Part shown: one piece after another, positions 246-9,744 of the stretch
Layout of the letters: every line of letters begins with the position of its first letter
How positions within the stretch are numbered: the stretch's first letter is position 1
Translations under genes and position numbers: made by a program
The notes under the pieces: generated by a model
The model's database searches: none
Told to the model about the DNA's origin: nothing
What the model saw: the letters and a program-made list of their open reading frames with translations, nothing else
Assembly (NCBI GenBank): GCA_031370005.1
Contig: JANMPT010000048.1
Coordinates: 1 to 11,816 of the forward strand
Direction: 5' to 3'
DNA length: 11,816 nt
Source of the DNA: Bdellovibrionales bacterium
GTDB taxonomy: Bacteria; Bdellovibrionota; Bdellovibrionia; Bdellovibrionales; Bdellovibrionaceae

Positions 246-536
246 GTGATTAAAAACATAAAGGGCAAAGCAACTCAAGATATATTCGATGGGACAAACA
301 GCAAGGCTGGCCGTAAAGTTCCGAATGAACTTCACGAGCGAGCAAGAGATCTACTCGATGCAATTAATGCGATAACAAGAGTAGATGATTTGAAGTCTCC
401 ACCGAGTAATAGATTGCACAAGCTCAAAGGGAATCTTAAAGATTTTTGGAGTGTTAGCATCAATGATCAGTGGAGAATTATTTTTAAGTGGGATGAAAAA
501 AATGCTACTGATGTTGAAATAATAGATTACCACTAG
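246..536 (+). CDS. higB: HigB-family (RelE/ParE superfamily) mRNA interferase toxin
   Basis: 96 aa basic protein with hallmark DLKSPPSNRLHKLKG, WSVSINDQWRIIFKW and C-terminal DYH. It lies upstream of an HTH antitoxin (toxin-first order). Confidence 0.95.
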   Translation: MIKNIKGKATQDIFDGTNSKAGRKVPNELHERARDLLDAINAITRVDDLKSPPSNRLHKLKGNLKDFWSVSINDQWRIIFKWDEKNATDVEIIDYH

Positions 537-548
537 GGAGTATGGCAT

Positions 549-833
549 ATGAGACCAAAAAATAGAGCACCAAGGCATCCAGGCGAAATCCTACAACGTG
601 TATTTCTTGAAGACATGGGTATTACTCAATCTAGTCTTGCCAACCATTTAAAGTGGAAGCCTGGAAAGATAAATGAGATTGTGAATAAGAAGCGTGGTAT
701 TACTGCAGAAACGGCACTCGCTTTGGCTGATGCATTGAAAACAACTCCTGAGTTTTGGCTGAATCTCCAATCTAATTATGATCTTTGGCAAGCTGAACAG
801 AAGCATACGAAAGTTTCTGCGATAAGTGCTTAA
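549..833 (+). CDS. higA: HigA-family XRE-HTH antitoxin
   Basis: HPGEIL, HTH (ITQSSLANHL...INEIVNKKRGITAETA) and TTPEFWLNLQSNYDL motifs. RBS GGGAG at 536-540; 12 nt after the higB stop. Confidence 0.95.
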   Translation: MRPKNRAPRHPGEILQRVFLEDMGITQSSLANHLKWKPGKINEIVNKKRGITAETALALADALKTTPEFWLNLQSNYDLWQAEQKHTKVSAISA

Positions 834-1853: not shown

Positions 1854-2594
1854 TTAAATACTTTTAACGGCACTGCCAAGGTACGAAAGCGCCAAACTCT
1901 TCGTTAACTTAAAACGTAAACTTTTCGGCACCAGTCCAGAAAAAATATTCTGGATTGGGATACTTGAAAACACTGGCTTTATTCCAACCATATTTTCCGG
2001 CAACAAACCAGCTTGCAAACAATAAGTCTTCAATTCGGCGGGCTTGATAAAAAGATGCAGCACATGCATATCTTTTGGCGTATTCTTTACGAACCACACG
2101 ACGAATTTTATTATGATCAGATAGGCCAAAAGATTTCTGTTAAATGTGTGAAATATAAACAAACCATTCGGCTTTAACACGCGCGAAAATTCTTTAATCA
2201 CATCTGCTGGCCGATCCACATGCTCTAAAAAATCTAAGGAGGTAACAACATCAAAACTTTGATCCGCAAACGGTAGCCGGTACGCATCGGCCGTTTGGTA
2301 ATGAACTTTCTTTGTAACATCGTACTCGGCAGCTACACGAAGGCTATCAGGCGATAGATCGACTCCGGTGACTTGAAGATTTTGCTTTGCTAGCTCATTA
2401 CTTAAGAATCCGGCGCCGCAGCCGACGTCTAATACCTTCGTCGATGCGCTTAATAATCCGTGCTGACTAATTTTTTCTAGTATCCAAGGTGTCTTCGTTT
2501 TCGACTCGGCTCGTAGCAATGCGATTGGGTCGTCATCGGCCTCATACCAGCGATTTCCATACAAGTTATAAATATCATTGTTGACTTTTTTCAC
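1854..2594 (-). CDS. ubiG: UbiG-like SAM-dependent O-methyltransferase
   Basis: Motif I VLDVGCGAG, VTGVDLS, FDVVTSLDFLEHV, LKPNGLFIFHTFNRN (cf. UbiG STINR) and FIKPAEL. The GTG start overlaps the upstream gene by 20 nt. May be a pathway-specific paralogue rather than housekeeping ubiG. Confidence 0.85.
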   Translation of the reverse strand: MKKVNNDIYNLYGNRWYEADDDPIALLRAESKTKTPWILEKISQHGLLSASTKVLDVGCGAGFLSNELAKQNLQVTGVDLSPDSLRVAAEYDVTKKVHYQTADAYRLPFADQSFDVVTSLDFLEHVDRPADVIKEFSRVLKPNGLFIFHTFNRNLLAYLIIIKFVVWFVKNTPKDMHVLHLFIKPAELKTYCLQAGLLPENMVGIKPVFSSIPIQNIFSGLVPKSLRFKLTKSLALSYLGSAVKSI

Positions 2595-3021
2595 GCAGAC
2601 TCCAGTAGATGACTTGATAGATCATAAAAATAATTAGCGCAAATGATTGCCCTACTAAAAGATCTAAATGTATTTGCCGCATCCACATTAAGCCGCCCAT
2701 AAAAAAAACGACAGGGTGTAAGATAAATAAGGATGAGTGCAACCAGTGTTCGCCGCCCGCACATTTTTTAGCATGGATAAATTCATCTTTAGTGATGAAT
2801 AAAGAAGAAAAAATACAGAGACCAATATAGATTTTTAAATTCATTTCAGTGGGGACATAAAAAACTAAAAAAGCAAAACACGCTAAGACCGACAAAGTAT
2901 CTAAGGGATGGCCGATGCGTTCCCATGCCGGAAGCCCACGTCGGTGATGAAAATAGAATTCATCAAAAAACATTAAAATTCCCTGTAAAAAAAAAGGCGC
3001 AATTAAAAAAATCACTAGCAT
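2575..3021 (-). CDS. Uncharacterised ~4-TM membrane protein with duplicated DE..H / ExxxH motifs (putative di-metal enzyme)
   Basis: 148 aa with alternating hydrophobic helices and DEFYFHH...ERIGHP and DEFIH...EHWLH. Its ATG overlaps the PKS stop (ATGCTAG, 7-nt overlap). Confidence 0.85.
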   Translation of the reverse strand: MLVIFLIAPFFLQGILMFFDEFYFHHRRGLPAWERIGHPLDTLSVLACFAFLVFYVPTEMNLKIYIGLCIFSSLFITKDEFIHAKKCAGGEHWLHSSLFILHPVVFFMGGLMWMRQIHLDLLVGQSFALIIFMIYQVIYWSLREKSQQ

Positions 3022-4136
3022 ACCTCAAAAACCGCACCAAATAGGGTCAATCCCGGGCCGAAAGCGTAACTGATCACTTTCGTTCCAATCGGATAATTCC
3101 GATTTAAAATCTCATCCCAAACGTGCGGCAAAGTGGCGGATGACATATTCCCTCGCTCAAATAAAATCTTTCTGCTTTCAGAAATTTGACTTTCACTCAG
3201 TTCTAGAACTTCCATGACCGAATCGATAATCTTAGGTCCACCGGGATGCACGGCGTAAACTGAATTCATCGCCTCAGTTAAACTTAAACCAGCCTTTTTG
3301 AAAAGTTCATTTGAAAACTGTTTTAGTTCTGCTTTGATTTTAGTAGGAACATTGCGCGATAGGTTCATTTGCATACCCCAAGGAGCGGGTATCCAGCTCA
3401 TATCGTCTTGCGAATTAGGCACAAGCTTTTCTAGCAAAGCTATAATTTTTAGATTTTTTGAATTCACTTCTGGCTTTGATGTGGCTGTGTACTTGACGTG
3501 TCCGTCGGCAAATAAAGTTTGCACCACCATTTGCTCGGGCGTATGCACTTTTGGATTCATATGCAGACCGCACATTTCAGTGTGAACAATATCAGTCTGT
3601 TGATTTTCAGAGATAACGAAGCTTTTTGCCATTCTGACAGCAGGAAGGGCCGCATAGCAGCCCATATGATATGCATGCGTCACATCTGTTTTGTGACCCC
3701 AAAGTGTTTCGGTCACTATTTTTTGAGCCGCACTTGGGGATATATATCCCGTGCAACTGACGTGAATCAAATGATCTGGCCGAGACGACTTTTGTTTCAC
3801 ATCATAAAATTGATTAAAGACTTCATAAGCTCTATCCGAAAAAAAAAGAGTGCGTTCGTAAATAGACTTTCCGCTTTGTTGGTTTGGAATGACCTGATAA
3901 ATTTCGTTCTGACTATAGTCAGTCGATAGAATGTCGTCGCACTCTAAAAAACGCTGGGAAATTTGTTCTGGCCGAATGGCATACCTTTCAAGTAGTTTTT
4001 GAATCGTGTACTGAGTTCGCAAATTTTCTGACTCTGTGGCCTGATGACAGAGCACAATCCATTCAAGCAAATTACTTTGGCTAATTCTGTTTTTAGGCAA
4101 AACAACTTTGAACTGGTTTAAATAAACGGCAGTCAT
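3015..4136 (-). CDS. Type III polyketide synthase (chalcone/stilbene synthase family)
   Basis: Catalytic triad C160 (HMGCYAA), H297 (AVHPGG), N330 (GNMSSA), plus HVSCTG, TEMCGLH, LFADG and AFGPGLT. Strong RBS AGAGGAGGA at 4141-4149 (minus). Confidence 0.95.
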   Translation of the reverse strand: MTAVYLNQFKVVLPKNRISQSNLLEWIVLCHQATESENLRTQYTIQKLLERYAIRPEQISQRFLECDDILSTDYSQNEIYQVIPNQQSGKSIYERTLFFSDRAYEVFNQFYDVKQKSSRPDHLIHVSCTGYISPSAAQKIVTETLWGHKTDVTHAYHMGCYAALPAVRMAKSFVISENQQTDIVHTEMCGLHMNPKVHTPEQMVVQTLFADGHVKYTATSKPEVNSKNLKIIALLEKLVPNSQDDMSWIPAPWGMQMNLSRNVPTKIKAELKQFSNELFKKAGLSLTEAMNSVYAVHPGGPKIIDSVMEVLELSESQISESRKILFERGNMSSATLPHVWDEILNRNYPIGTKVISYAFGPGLTLFGAVFEVC

Positions 4137-4594
4137 GATGTCCTCCTCTTACCACATTGCTATAGACTGTTCGGACAGTACGCCGCGACCTGCTCGAAGT
4201 CTACGTGTGTGTCCCAAAAGATGCTTAGTGATGGAATTAACAAATGCCAATCCACAATATTATCACAGGGAACTGTCGTTTTTGCTCTCAGAAAATAGCT
4301 TTACTAGTTCTTATGTCAAAAGTTGAAATTAAACATAGTTACTCATTTTTCAGTCGAAAAGGTCTTTGCTTCTTTTCGCGCTGTTCGAATTGCAGAACTC
4401 AACTGCCACTTCTGTCAAATCACCATTGCCATATAGGTGTTGAGCCCTGTCCGTTTGTAATATTCATGTTTATTTACACATCTAAGTTTCAAGGTTTCTC
4501 GGAACTGTGTTATATGTCTTTATGTGCATAATCTAGTGTCCAACCTACTTAGACGTGCGATATAAATGAATATGTAAGAATAAATTGGGGATTT

Positions 4595-5740
4595 ATGCTT
4601 TACGAATTTCTGCTTGAAAATGAAAAAGAAATACTTGCCATGACAGAGAAAGCTTCGGTGGATTTGGCAGGTGTTCGAACATCATCGGAGCGGCTCAAAA
4701 GTGGACTCCCGATTTTTTTTGATCAACTGCTTGAGGTCCTCAGGCTTGAGGCTTTTATGCCAAACATTAATCCTAAAAAAGAAAAGTCGAAGATGCAAAT
4801 TGCGGCAACAGAAAATGACGAAGAGGCAATGGCTGTGGCCGCTGGGAGGCCTGAAGAAGCGGGTCTCGCCCATACAGCCGGAACCCATGGGAAAGAATTA
4901 CTTCGCCTTGGCTACACGCTTTCTCATGTAGTTCACGCATATGGCTCTATCTGCCAATCAATTACAGAACTTGCTAATCAGAAGAACGTCAGCATTACGT
5001 CAAGGGAATTTCATCACTTAAACCGCTGCTTAGATGTCGCAATAGCAGGAGCTGTAACAGAATTTCAGTCACAAAAAAATTCTCGCGAAAGTGATAGGGA
5101 AGTCAAACATCTTGGATTTTTGGCGCATGAACTGCGAAATGCACTTGGGACCGTAACTATGTCTCTTGATATAATAAAAAAAGGCACAGTCGGATTTAAT
5201 GGCAGTACGGGTCATGTGCTTGAGCGAGGCCTAAAGCGGATTGAACAGCTCATCCAACGATCCCTGACTGAGGTTAGGTTGCGTGTGGATCCAGAAGTCT
5301 ATCCTGAGACTTTAAACCTTCTGAATCTTGTGGATCAAATTGTTGTAACTGCTGGCATTGAAGCACAAGCTAAAAAACAAATTCTAGAAATTCAAATAGA
5401 TTCCAGCTTAGATTTTACTGCTGACCAACAACTTATCTATTCTGCGATATCTAATCTTATTCAAAATGCTATTAAGTATACTCGACCCGGCGGAAAAATT
5501 ATTATACGGGGCTTTTCGAAGAAAGAAAATATTGTGCTTGAGGTGGAAGACGAATGCGGGGGCTTGGCAAACAAAAAAATTGACTTATTTAAGCCCTTTG
5601 AACAGCAGAATGAAAATCGTGAAGGACTTGGATTGGGACTTACCATAGCCCAACAGGCTGTTAAATTGAATCGCGGCTCCATTCAAGTTTCTGACGTTCC
5701 TAGCAAGGGATGTATTTTCACGATCAGCCTGCCAAAATAA
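4595..5740 (+). CDS. Cytoplasmic sensor histidine kinase (helical RsbRD_N-like input domain + HisKA + HATPase_c)
   Basis: H-box FLAHELRNAL (H178), N-box NLIQNAIKYT, G1 VEDECGG, F-box LFKPF, G2 GLGLGL. No TM segments. Confidence 0.92.
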   Translation: MLYEFLLENEKEILAMTEKASVDLAGVRTSSERLKSGLPIFFDQLLEVLRLEAFMPNINPKKEKSKMQIAATENDEEAMAVAAGRPEEAGLAHTAGTHGKELLRLGYTLSHVVHAYGSICQSITELANQKNVSITSREFHHLNRCLDVAIAGAVTEFQSQKNSRESDREVKHLGFLAHELRNALGTVTMSLDIIKKGTVGFNGSTGHVLERGLKRIEQLIQRSLTEVRLRVDPEVYPETLNLLNLVDQIVVTAGIEAQAKKQILEIQIDSSLDFTADQQLIYSAISNLIQNAIKYTRPGGKIIIRGFSKKENIVLEVEDECGGLANKKIDLFKPFEQQNENREGLGLGLTIAQQAVKLNRGSIQVSDVPSKGCIFTISLPK

Positions 5741-9450: not shown

Positions 9451-9744
9451 ATCCAAAGCCCAAACCGCATTGTCTACACCCAACAGTTTTGTGATGAAAA
9501 TGAAAAAGTAACTCGACATCCTATGGCGCCAACCTGGCCAGAAACCATGTTAACCGTAGTAACATTTGCAGAAGAAGGACCTGATAAAACCAGAGTCACA
9601 GTAACGTGGGAGACCCATGGTTCGACAACAACAGAAGAAATCGAGGCCTTCGTTAAGGCAAGAGGCGGAATGACTCAGGGATGGACAGGCTCTTTTGATA
9701 AACTGGAAGATTACCTAGGAGCGGCAAGTTTCAGCTGCGGCTGA
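9451..9744 (+). pseudogene. 5'-truncated SRPBCC (AHSA1/START-like) domain gene
   Basis: The frame extends upstream of ATG 9523 to an in-frame TGA at 9448-9450 and reads IQSPNRIVYTQQFCDENEKVTRHPMAPTWPETMLTVVTFAEEGPDKTRVTVTWE...GMTQGWTGSFDKLEDYL. This is the C-terminal half of an SRPBCC domain, with no start or RBS for the missing half. Confidence 0.75.

Follow-up and report, generated by a model that had tools for sequence, protein, structure and literature searches.

Three packed minus-strand genes in the window (the whole 11,816-nucleotide stretch of Bdellovibrionales DNA that was analysed) encode a type III polyketide synthase (PKS), a small membrane protein and a UbiG-like methyltransferase that almost certainly serve one pathway, the product of which is probably a methylated membrane lipid of phenolic or quinone-like type. 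The open reading frames (Table 1) confirm the arrangement given in the original prediction, and all three residues of the PKS Cys-His-Asn triad that it had called intact are present. The longest frames do overlap by 7 nt (PKS/membrane gene) and 20 nt (membrane gene/methyltransferase) as had been proposed, but the first value is probably too large: a Shine-Dalgarno-like GAGGT abuts the ATG at 3021 yet lies 6 nt ahead of an in-frame GTG at 3015, and the database copy of the membrane protein has 146 residues, so that the true overlap is probably 1 nt. The promoter scan returned 5 sigma-70-like matches against 7.7 expected and thus did not rise above chance, nor did the terminator scan. Neither a prenyltransferase nor a flavin monooxygenase family was matched among the 14 window ORFs scanned (of 35 listed), in agreement with the predicted absence of both.

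Table 1. Features of the cassette and its upstream region (window coordinates)
Feature	Position	Strand	Remarks
Type III PKS gene, ArsB/ArsC clade	3015..4136	minus	373 aa; C160/H297/N330; Trp248
Membrane protein gene, unannotated family	2575..3021	minus	146-148 aa; about five hydrophobic helices
UbiG-like class I SAM methyltransferase gene	1854..2594	minus	246 aa; GTG start
Strong Shine-Dalgarno-like sequence before PKS start	4142..4149	minus	
Candidate sigma-70-like promoter upstream of PKS	4292..4319	minus	not above chance

The membrane protein has 555 genome matches, and the loci of the best 80 were fetched. In these the PKS lies directly upstream of the membrane gene in 79 and the methyltransferase directly downstream in 78, while the complete order is intact in 77; the syntenic loci come from Bdellovibrionota, Myxococcota and Verrucomicrobiota records. 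With synteny at this level the three genes are not adjacent by chance, and the trio of the original prediction is conserved across genomes. A sample of 201 genomes of the class, in which related genomes are not independent, gave all three genes in 67, none in 128 and a single gene in others (PKS 1, methyltransferase 3, distant membrane homologue 2). Where the operon is broken the absent partner is still found elsewhere in the genome, and this holds for all three pairings: PKS with membrane gene in genus g4 (methyltransferase elsewhere in 4/4 genomes checked), PKS with methyltransferase in genome G072 (membrane gene kept though unlinked) and membrane gene with methyltransferase in genome G184 (PKS elsewhere). 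In-frame fusions of the membrane protein to the methyltransferase occur in 7 of the 80 loci and at locus L136, as well as in 11 of the 17 long members of the family that were scanned, these having been chosen by length from 150 listed. The cultured type strain Labilithrix luteola DSM 27648 (L048) has an intact cassette; only 6 of 251 genomes sampled from the phylum of genome G203 gave a match, and the cassette is therefore not a general myxobacterial trait.

No fourth conserved gene was found among the ORFs of the 80 loci: ORF clusters 2-7 of the neighbour set overlie, by their coordinates, the three cassette genes in a different frame or on the opposite strand, and the remaining clusters are lineage-specific flanks. 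Nor does a ferredoxin, reductase or other electron-donor gene accompany the cassette in these loci. The membrane protein found no plasmid match and a single weak row in a viral search. Elsewhere in the family, locus L078 has the membrane gene and methyltransferase followed by a fatty-acid-hydroxylase-family gene with no PKS, three distant membrane homologues (L092, L093, L133) adjoin neither a PKS nor a methyltransferase, and the homologue P0230 is fused to a UbiA-family domain.

The PKS scores 80.1 bits on PF02797 (cut-off 27) and 22.6 bits, below cut-off, on PF00195, and the catalytic triad is kept in 95/95 aligned PKSs. Its closest PDB matches are 3VS9 (E 1e-59) and 3VS8 (E 9e-58), the G284W variant of ArsC and wild-type ArsC respectively. 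Residue W248 aligns with the Trp of 3VS9 and the Gly of 3VS8 (the ArsB W281/ArsC G284 position), where Trp leads to resorcinol products (PMC6274091), and Trp occupies this position in all 95 aligned sequences. A partnerless PKS (L137) has Tyr there together with further active-site changes; more distant type III PKSs likewise have Trp at this site, which makes the residue a guide rather than proof. The enzyme looks like an ArsB-type resorcinol synthase, in keeping with the original prediction, and because Trp248 is present the scaffold made by the cassette is very likely of the resorcinol type.

The methyltransferase was predicted to be UbiG-like and proved so, exceeding the cut-off of TIGR01983 (127.2 bits vs 102.95) and keeping the SAM motifs, with an identity to UbiG and COQ3 of about 30-36%. 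Residues D121, E124 and H125 are kept in 92/92 sequences and H177 in 91/92. The H125-H177 gap of 52 residues equals that of COQ3 H227/H279, a putative metal-binding pair (PMC9774615), and binding of the ortho-diol substrate by COQ3 depends on a divalent metal (PMC7615680). The hydrophobic membrane insertion of UbiG is retained as well. The pocket differs from that of UbiG in having L27 in place of the His of 'LH', with R28 invariant and E30 nearly invariant, and a carboxylate-bearing resorcylic acid could therefore be a substrate.

The membrane protein belongs to a family that falls into at least 315 clusters at 50% identity and in which, over 91 diverse sequences, 8 polar residues are invariant and about 6 nearly so. 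Conservation falls in two sets (D20, E21, H25, R28, E34, H38, D41 and K78, D79, E80, H83, E91, H95, H102) that map to two Lys/Arg-rich loops, and about 13 near-invariant Asp/Glu/His residues are predicted to lie on one membrane face. The structure is predicted with confidence as a bundle of helices (pLDDT 94) and carries two DE-x-H...E-x3-H sets, spaced otherwise than the paired E..ExxH motifs of COQ7 and ferritin-like di-iron enzymes; a two-fold repeat within the protein is weak (hhalign P 0.015, probability 3%). The window protein matched no Pfam or NCBIfam family, Pfam rows for 101 family members are scattered and weak, each in at most 4 members, and the Pfam His-box families show no similarity to these 101. 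No PDB sequence matched at E up to 10, Foldseek gave best E values of 1.6 (PDB) and 0.92 (viral models) with no significant fold match, and the best VIA structural comparison (Z 10.1) falls inside the helical-bundle background, a weak or absent match of this sort being no evidence for a new fold. Atlas matches were to unnamed clusters only, and two distant family members used as queries returned 5 unnamed relatives in one case and 2 loci of the query itself in the other. The COQ4 zinc motif HDxxH-x11-E (PMC9774615) is not among the conserved residues. With conservation centred on His/Asp/Glu the protein looks like an enzyme, as the original prediction had it; it is likely a metalloenzyme, and that it is a ring oxygenase is a putative assignment with not quite an even chance.

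A pathway can be proposed on this basis. The PKS would load a long-chain acyl starter from the fatty-acid pool of the cell, add three malonyl units and, as Trp248 suggests, close the ring by aldol condensation to give a 5-alkylresorcinol or its resorcylic acid. Since a resorcinol is a meta-diol and a UbiG-type enzyme needs an ortho-diol, a prior hydroxylation is implied. The membrane protein may bind one or two metal ions (iron likeliest) through its Asp/Glu/His cluster at the cytoplasmic face and, in what is the weakest step, hydroxylate the ring at the carbon flanked by the alkyl chain and a phenol group; alternatively, it could oxidatively decarboxylate the resorcylic acid, which bears its carboxyl on this carbon. 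The membrane-associated UbiG-like enzyme, judged by UbiG/COQ3 chemistry, would then methylate the ortho-diol to yield 2-alkyl-6-methoxy-1,4-hydroquinone, the alkyl counterpart of an intermediate in ubiquinone synthesis. In the membrane this lipid might be an antioxidant or a modifier, or it might carry electrons as an auxiliary to menaquinone. We hold only tentatively, a shade below even, that the membrane protein depends on metal and provides the ortho-diol by ring hydroxylation or oxidative decarboxylation, leading to the 2-alkyl-6-methoxy-hydroquinone. Against this reading, a monooxygenase needs electrons, yet the cassette has no electron-donor gene, and the motif has neither the COQ7 spacing nor the form of the COQ4 motif. 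The weakness of the two-fold repeat and the distant membrane homologues with neither partner alongside also count against it. A planctomycete methyltransferase beside a resorcinol synthase probably C-methylates (PMC10896814), and predictions drawn from gene neighbourhood can therefore fail.

The missing electron donor would be accounted for if the membrane protein were a non-redox metal enzyme, either an alkylresorcylic acid decarboxylase or a releasing hydrolase, and the product a mono-O-methyl alkylresorcinol or methylated resorcylate serving as a structural lipid and not a quinone. His/Asp/Glu clusters also bind Zn, the invariant R28 of the methyltransferase could hold a carboxylate, and a salicylate-type substrate is also able to chelate metal. 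COQ4 uses Zn to decarboxylate a lipid-quinone precursor (PMC7615680); ArsB, however, yields alkylresorcinols that are already decarboxylated, and no partner of this kind is named for it (PMC6274091); the product of a decarboxylase would be a meta-diol ill-suited to UbiG-type chemistry, and some 13 conserved polar residues exceed the need of one Zn site. We regard this explanation as rather unlikely.

It is more doubtful still that the membrane protein is non-enzymatic and anchors the PKS and methyltransferase, presents the lipid, or flips or exports the product. It is small, hydrophobic and in some genomes fused to the methyltransferase, and channels, bestrophin for one (Z 10.1, rmsd 3.4, 129 aligned; background level), are among its best structural matches, but conservation centred on His/Asp/Glu would be unusual in an anchor, the methyltransferase already has a UbiG-type hydrophobic insertion of its own, and the membrane gene is retained in G072 even when unlinked. 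Membrane His-rich di-metal enzymes frequently use acyl chains as substrate, and the membrane protein could be a metal oxygenase or desaturase that acts elsewhere (on the alkyl chain, in ring cleavage or in oxidative coupling), or the methyltransferase could C-methylate, to give another phenolic lipid. The fatty-acid-hydroxylase-family gene at L078 would fit an acyl-chain activity; the membrane protein, though, has no similarity to that hydroxylase (hhalign E 0.15) or to the His-box families, and its close coupling with a UbiG-type enzyme indicates the ring, so that we give this marginally less weight than the non-enzymatic role.

The gene content of the host bears on whether the methyltransferase could instead be an ordinary ubiquinone enzyme. 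It is the only UbiG-like gene of the source genome (99.8% complete) and the cassette methyltransferase is likewise the sole such gene in 5/5 other cassette genomes tested, so that the predicted UbiG paralogue has no housekeeping UbiG beside it and that description does not hold; loci L024 and L037, with proteobacterial titles that may be wrong, show one UbiG match each and no second UbiG. The separation from housekeeping UbiG is borne out by a phylogeny, from a small sample with long outgroup branches, that places nine proteobacterial UbiG in their own clade (100/99) and 28 cassette-type sequences apart (80/92). The proposed co-occurrence check against ubi and men genes found menA and menB in the source genome; ubiA was not found there (its three UbiA-family genes are CyoE-, MenA- and MenA-like), nor was ubiD, and a UbiB-like gene falls below cut-off. 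A housekeeping UbiG, with the three genes as chance neighbours or as a prenylated-quinone set, is scarcely credible despite the TIGR01983 score, the sole-gene status, the UbiB-like gene and one report of ubiquinone from a Bdellovibrio with three homologues found (PMC13386864), given the separate proteobacterial clade, the failure to find ubiA and ubiD in so complete a genome and the near-perfect co-occurrence of the methyltransferase with the PKS. Both same-genus genomes lack the cassette, and together with the menaquinone genes this means that the cassette is not an essential respiratory pathway. In the source genome no full-length flavin hydroxylase was found (PF01494 matches span 31-37 of 349 positions), nor any tblastn match to two PKS-linked FAD oxidoreductases, and its single ICMT match is on another contig than the cassette.

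If the favoured ring-hydroxylation pathway is true, the cassette makes a lipid resembling ubiquinone with three genes, and a membrane protein acting as hydroxylase would be an oxygenase on a new scaffold, about 150 residues long. In either event an unannotated membrane family gains a concrete candidate function, and the cassette may explain ubiG-scoring genes in bacteria without ubiquinone genes, which are probably apt to be misannotated. With 555 genome matches, and with a third of the sampled genomes of the class carrying it, the cassette is widespread, and it is common in predatory bacteria. A bolder extension, which we consider improbable, is that the protein founds a new class of aromatic hydroxylases or oxidative decarboxylases that are very small, span the membrane, carry a di-metal site and take their electrons from the quinol pool or from the substrate itself, the lipid mimicking 2-polyprenyl-6-methoxy-benzoquinol as a second, higher-potential carrier in aerobic predators without a ubiquinone pathway. 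Non-isoprenoid polyketide quinones are already described as electron carriers (PMC9927152); phenolic lipids and polyketide quinones are thus a known class of product, and it is the enzyme set that would be new. This set was not found described in the literature searched (Hug 2019 and Spain 2016 lie outside that scope): PMC9814641 and PMC12766979 yielded nothing on the cassette, and PMC12843806 mentions only a T3PKS region in a Bdellovibrio genome.

Among known systems, UbiG/COQ3 share with the cassette methyltransferase the TIGR01983 family, SAM motifs, hydrophobic insertion and His pair, and differ in clade, N-terminal pocket residues and a host ubiquinone pathway, which was not found here. 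COQ7 (a di-iron hydroxylase) and COQ4 (a zinc decarboxylase), which act on lipid-quinone head groups next to COQ3 (PMC7615680, PMC9774615), are likewise small, helical and membrane-linked, and offer a functional analogy for the cassette membrane protein; unlike them it has no sequence or fold match, another motif spacing and an apparently membrane-spanning form. The arsABCD operon of Azotobacter vinelandii supplies in ArsC the nearest solved structure to the PKS, and ars-like PKSs of Beijerinckia and Methylosinus group among cassette PKSs in a quick tree with moderate support. Unlike the cassette, ars operons contain a type I fatty-acid synthase and a phosphopantetheinyl transferase; no type I fatty-acid synthase was found in the source genome, where two ArsA-like queries gave short low-identity matches only. 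An ICMT-family methyltransferase is a feature of srsABC and bpsAB (SrsB is ICMT-like), whereas that of the cassette is class I. Described alkylquinone operons combine a PKS, a methyltransferase and an oxidoreductase (PMC9927152, PMC8086630 and PMC10896814), a layout that another type III PKS of the same order (L146) also has; no FAD-dependent oxidoreductase or hydroxylase was seen in the scanned window ORFs or the recurring neighbours of the 80 loci. HidC clusters with ArsB/ArsC in one subclade, and hidABC (Cyanobium hierridins) and the planctomycete methyltransferase-oxidoreductase-PKS operon give O-methylated alkylresorcinol derivatives (PMC8086630, PMC10896814); they differ in their FAD-dependent oxidoreductase and gene order. 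Closest in outline are pkqABC (Mycobacterium smegmatis, Streptomyces sp. MNU77) and srsABC (Streptomyces griseus), whose methoxy-alkyl-hydroquinones/quinones are alternative electron carriers and which combine a resorcinol-type PKS bearing an ArsB-like Trp, an adjacent methyltransferase and one further tailoring gene (PMC9927152). That further gene encodes an oxidoreductase or hydroxylase, its counterpart in the cassette an unclassified membrane protein; the UbiG-like methyltransferase, the PKS clade and the hosts differ too. By analogy the cassette would function like srsABC, pkqABC and hidABC without being a member of their group.

The cassette of three minus-strand genes is set out in the table together with other features of the window. 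Re-examination of the window sequence bore out two details of the original prediction: C160, H297 and N330 of the type III PKS are all present, and the genes overlap by 7 and 20 nt when the longest ORFs are taken. For the membrane gene the GTG at 3015 is the probable start codon, because a GAGGT lies 6 nt 5' of this codon but abuts the ATG, and the database copy of the protein has 146 aa. The GC content of the cassette is 40.5% versus 43.6% for the genome, and its nearest named relatives are Bdellovibrionota records. The flanking genes (HigBA-like pair, histidine kinase, BON, DinB, TetR, CLC, LysR, SDR) are unrelated to it. The HigB-like toxin (PF05015) and the HTH antitoxin that follows form an ordinary HigBA-type pair, while the histidine kinase has an N-terminal region without a Pfam match and no adjacent response regulator in the window. 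The 21-codon ORF, which has a good Shine-Dalgarno sequence, an immediate stop and a start that we take to be similar to the N-terminus of the catalase-peroxidase KatG, is possibly a gene remnant; the match of the 73-aa ORF to AHSA1/SRPBCC is confined to the C-terminal part (PF08327 positions 71-125), and the ORF is probably a truncated gene.

Features of the cassette and its surroundings (window positions)
Feature	Position	Strand	Length
HigB-like toxin and HTH antitoxin	246-833	+	
21-codon ORF	1562-1500	-	21 codons
UbiG-like methyltransferase ORF	2594-1854	-	246 aa
Membrane protein ORF	3021-2575	-	148 aa (longest ORF)
Type III PKS ORF	4136-3015	-	373 aa
Histidine kinase	4595-5740	+	
73-aa ORF	9523-9744	+	73 aa

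The gene triad is conserved across genomes, a point that the original prediction had marked for checking. Among the best 80 of 555 genome matches to an alignment of 101 membrane proteins, a PKS lies immediately upstream of the membrane gene in 79, a methyltransferase immediately downstream in 78 and both adjoin it in 77, figures that overstate synteny because these loci are the closest matches. The exceptions are two loci without the methyltransferase (L054, L057) and one without the PKS (L078); in the latter, a Blastocatellia record (L078:5983-8728), the membrane gene and methyltransferase are followed by a fatty-acid-hydroxylase-family gene. No fourth gene recurs among the neighbours of the 80 loci. 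In 201 genomes from the window's class, a sample with less bias, the membrane gene is present in 69, a cassette-clade PKS (E < 1e-60; 16 genomes with a weaker PKS only were set aside as carrying other type III PKSs) in 68 and a cassette-type methyltransferase (counted up to E 1e-25) in 70; all three occur together in 67 and none in 128, kin among these genomes not being independent. Both same-genus genomes lack the cassette. Genus g4, a genus within this sample, is positive in 32 of 34 genomes, and in 4/4 checked the PKS adjoins the membrane gene with the methyltransferase elsewhere in the genome. Other separations leave the PKS linked to the methyltransferase and the membrane gene on another contig (G072), or the membrane gene linked to the methyltransferase and the PKS elsewhere (G184). 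At 7 of the 80 loci, and also at a further locus (L136), a single open frame spans the membrane gene and methyltransferase, and a UbiG-like domain ends 11 of 17 long membrane-family members scanned.

The best solved-structure matches of the PKS are 3VS9 and 3VS8, which are Azotobacter ArsC in its G284W mutant and wild-type forms. According to PMC6274091, Trp at position 284 (W281 in ArsB) redirects cyclisation towards alkylresorcinols. W248 of the window PKS is the Trp at that site, kept in 95/95 aligned PKSs; the only clade member without partners (L137) has Tyr there and further active-site changes. No ArsA-kind type I fatty-acid synthase was found in the genome, so the cell's ordinary fatty acids are the probable source of starters. 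The ars-like PKSs on Methylosinus and Beijerinckia plasmids (L128, L130) nest among cassette PKSs (quick tree, moderate support), which makes this clade a possible origin of the ars operon.

Family and cluster searches gave no name that holds for the membrane protein among 805 homologues and at least 315 clusters at 50% identity, and structure searches gave no clear match to its predicted model, which is all helical (pLDDT 94.3, pTM 0.88). Across 91 diverse members D20, H25, R28, E34, D41, K78, E80 and E91 are invariant and E21, H38, D79, H83, H95 and H102 nearly so. These polar residues fall in the two segments that carry the most Lys/Arg, 3.9 and 2.3 per sequence versus 0.3 and 1.1 in alternate loops, and so would lie on the cytoplasmic side, where a fused methyltransferase would sit too. 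The Asp/Glu/His set looks like a candidate one- or two-metal site, and the two halves of the protein align in register (DE..H..E..H) with weak statistics (P 0.015). In a single case (P0230), a UbiA-family prenyltransferase domain (PF01040) is fused in the methyltransferase's stead.

The methyltransferase retains in alignment the hydrophobic insertion described as serving UbiG membrane binding (PMC4796655). D121, E124 and H125 are kept in 92/92 sequences and H177 in 91/92; H125 and H177 share the spacing of a putative metal-binding His pair in COQ3 (PMC9774615), which is reported to require a divalent metal for binding its ortho-diol substrate (PMC7615680). The N-terminal pocket is unlike that of UbiG (L27, R28, E30). 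In the window's genome (99.79% complete) menA and menB are present, neither ubiA proper nor ubiD was found and the UbiB-like gene scores under cut-off, so the methyltransferase appears not to be the ubiquinone enzyme of this cell; no futalosine gene was found in the genome either. PMC13386864 notes a single report of ubiquinone from a Bdellovibrio, alongside just three homologues; this methyltransferase may be one of them. Consecutive genes elsewhere in the window's genome encode a polyprenyl synthase, its second MenA-like prenyltransferase and a SAM methyltransferase (L083, G000:C56:17587-21291). Some genus g4 genomes carry a second, more divergent UbiG-like copy (about 37% identity; L110 in G058, second matches in G104, G083, G062 and G113), and G058 carries only the divergent copy.

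The hydroxyls of a resorcinol are meta to each other, and UbiG-type enzymes methylate a hydroxyl adjoining another. A hydroxyl added between alkyl chain and phenol would give 6-alkyl-1,2,4-trihydroxybenzene, matching the UbiG substrate pattern, and its methylation 2-alkyl-6-methoxy-hydroquinone; oxidative decarboxylation of a resorcylic acid would yield the same trihydroxybenzene, since the carboxyl sits on that ring carbon. In described operons the oxidation step is ascribed to an oxidoreductase (PMC9927152, PMC8086630, PMC10896814), a layout that another type III PKS lineage within the window's order also has (L146), and no full-length flavin hydroxylase was found in the window's genome. We infer that the membrane protein may fill the vacant oxidation slot, and tentatively, at somewhat under an even chance, read it as the ring oxidation enzyme supplying the methyltransferase's ortho-diol. 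Counted against this reading are the lack of an electron-donor partner in the cassette, the altered methyltransferase pocket, distant membrane homologues standing alone (L092, L093, L133), the UbiA-domain fusion and the PKS-less locus. A non-redox metal enzyme would accord with the candidate metal site and the missing donor, but as a decarboxylase it would leave a meta-diol, which fits UbiG-type methylation poorly; we consider it unlikely. An anchor or transporter would suit the fusions to the methyltransferase and fit poorly with the invariant acidic residues and histidine, and is improbable; slightly less probable still is oxidation of another kind. That the methyltransferase is housekeeping UbiG, as its score over the UbiG cut-off might suggest, is very improbable: identity to proteobacterial UbiG is about 30-36%, and the nesting within UbiG that would have undone the original prediction is not seen in a 45-sequence tree (outgroup branches long), where nine proteobacterial UbiG form one clade (100/99) and 28 cassette-type methyltransferases a separate group (80/92).

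Targeted searches, with subscription journals mostly outside their coverage, returned no paper on this cassette, and the two-gene PKS-methyltransferase operon of PMC7064976 is distinct from it. Assignment to arsABCD was rejected for want of the ArsA-kind synthase. The cassette is real, conserved and uncharacterised, and its main interest is its membrane protein, a putative enzyme without a named family. In proposed function it would work like srsABC, pkqABC and hidABC, but it stands outside them, being without an FAD oxidoreductase and having a methyltransferase of another class.
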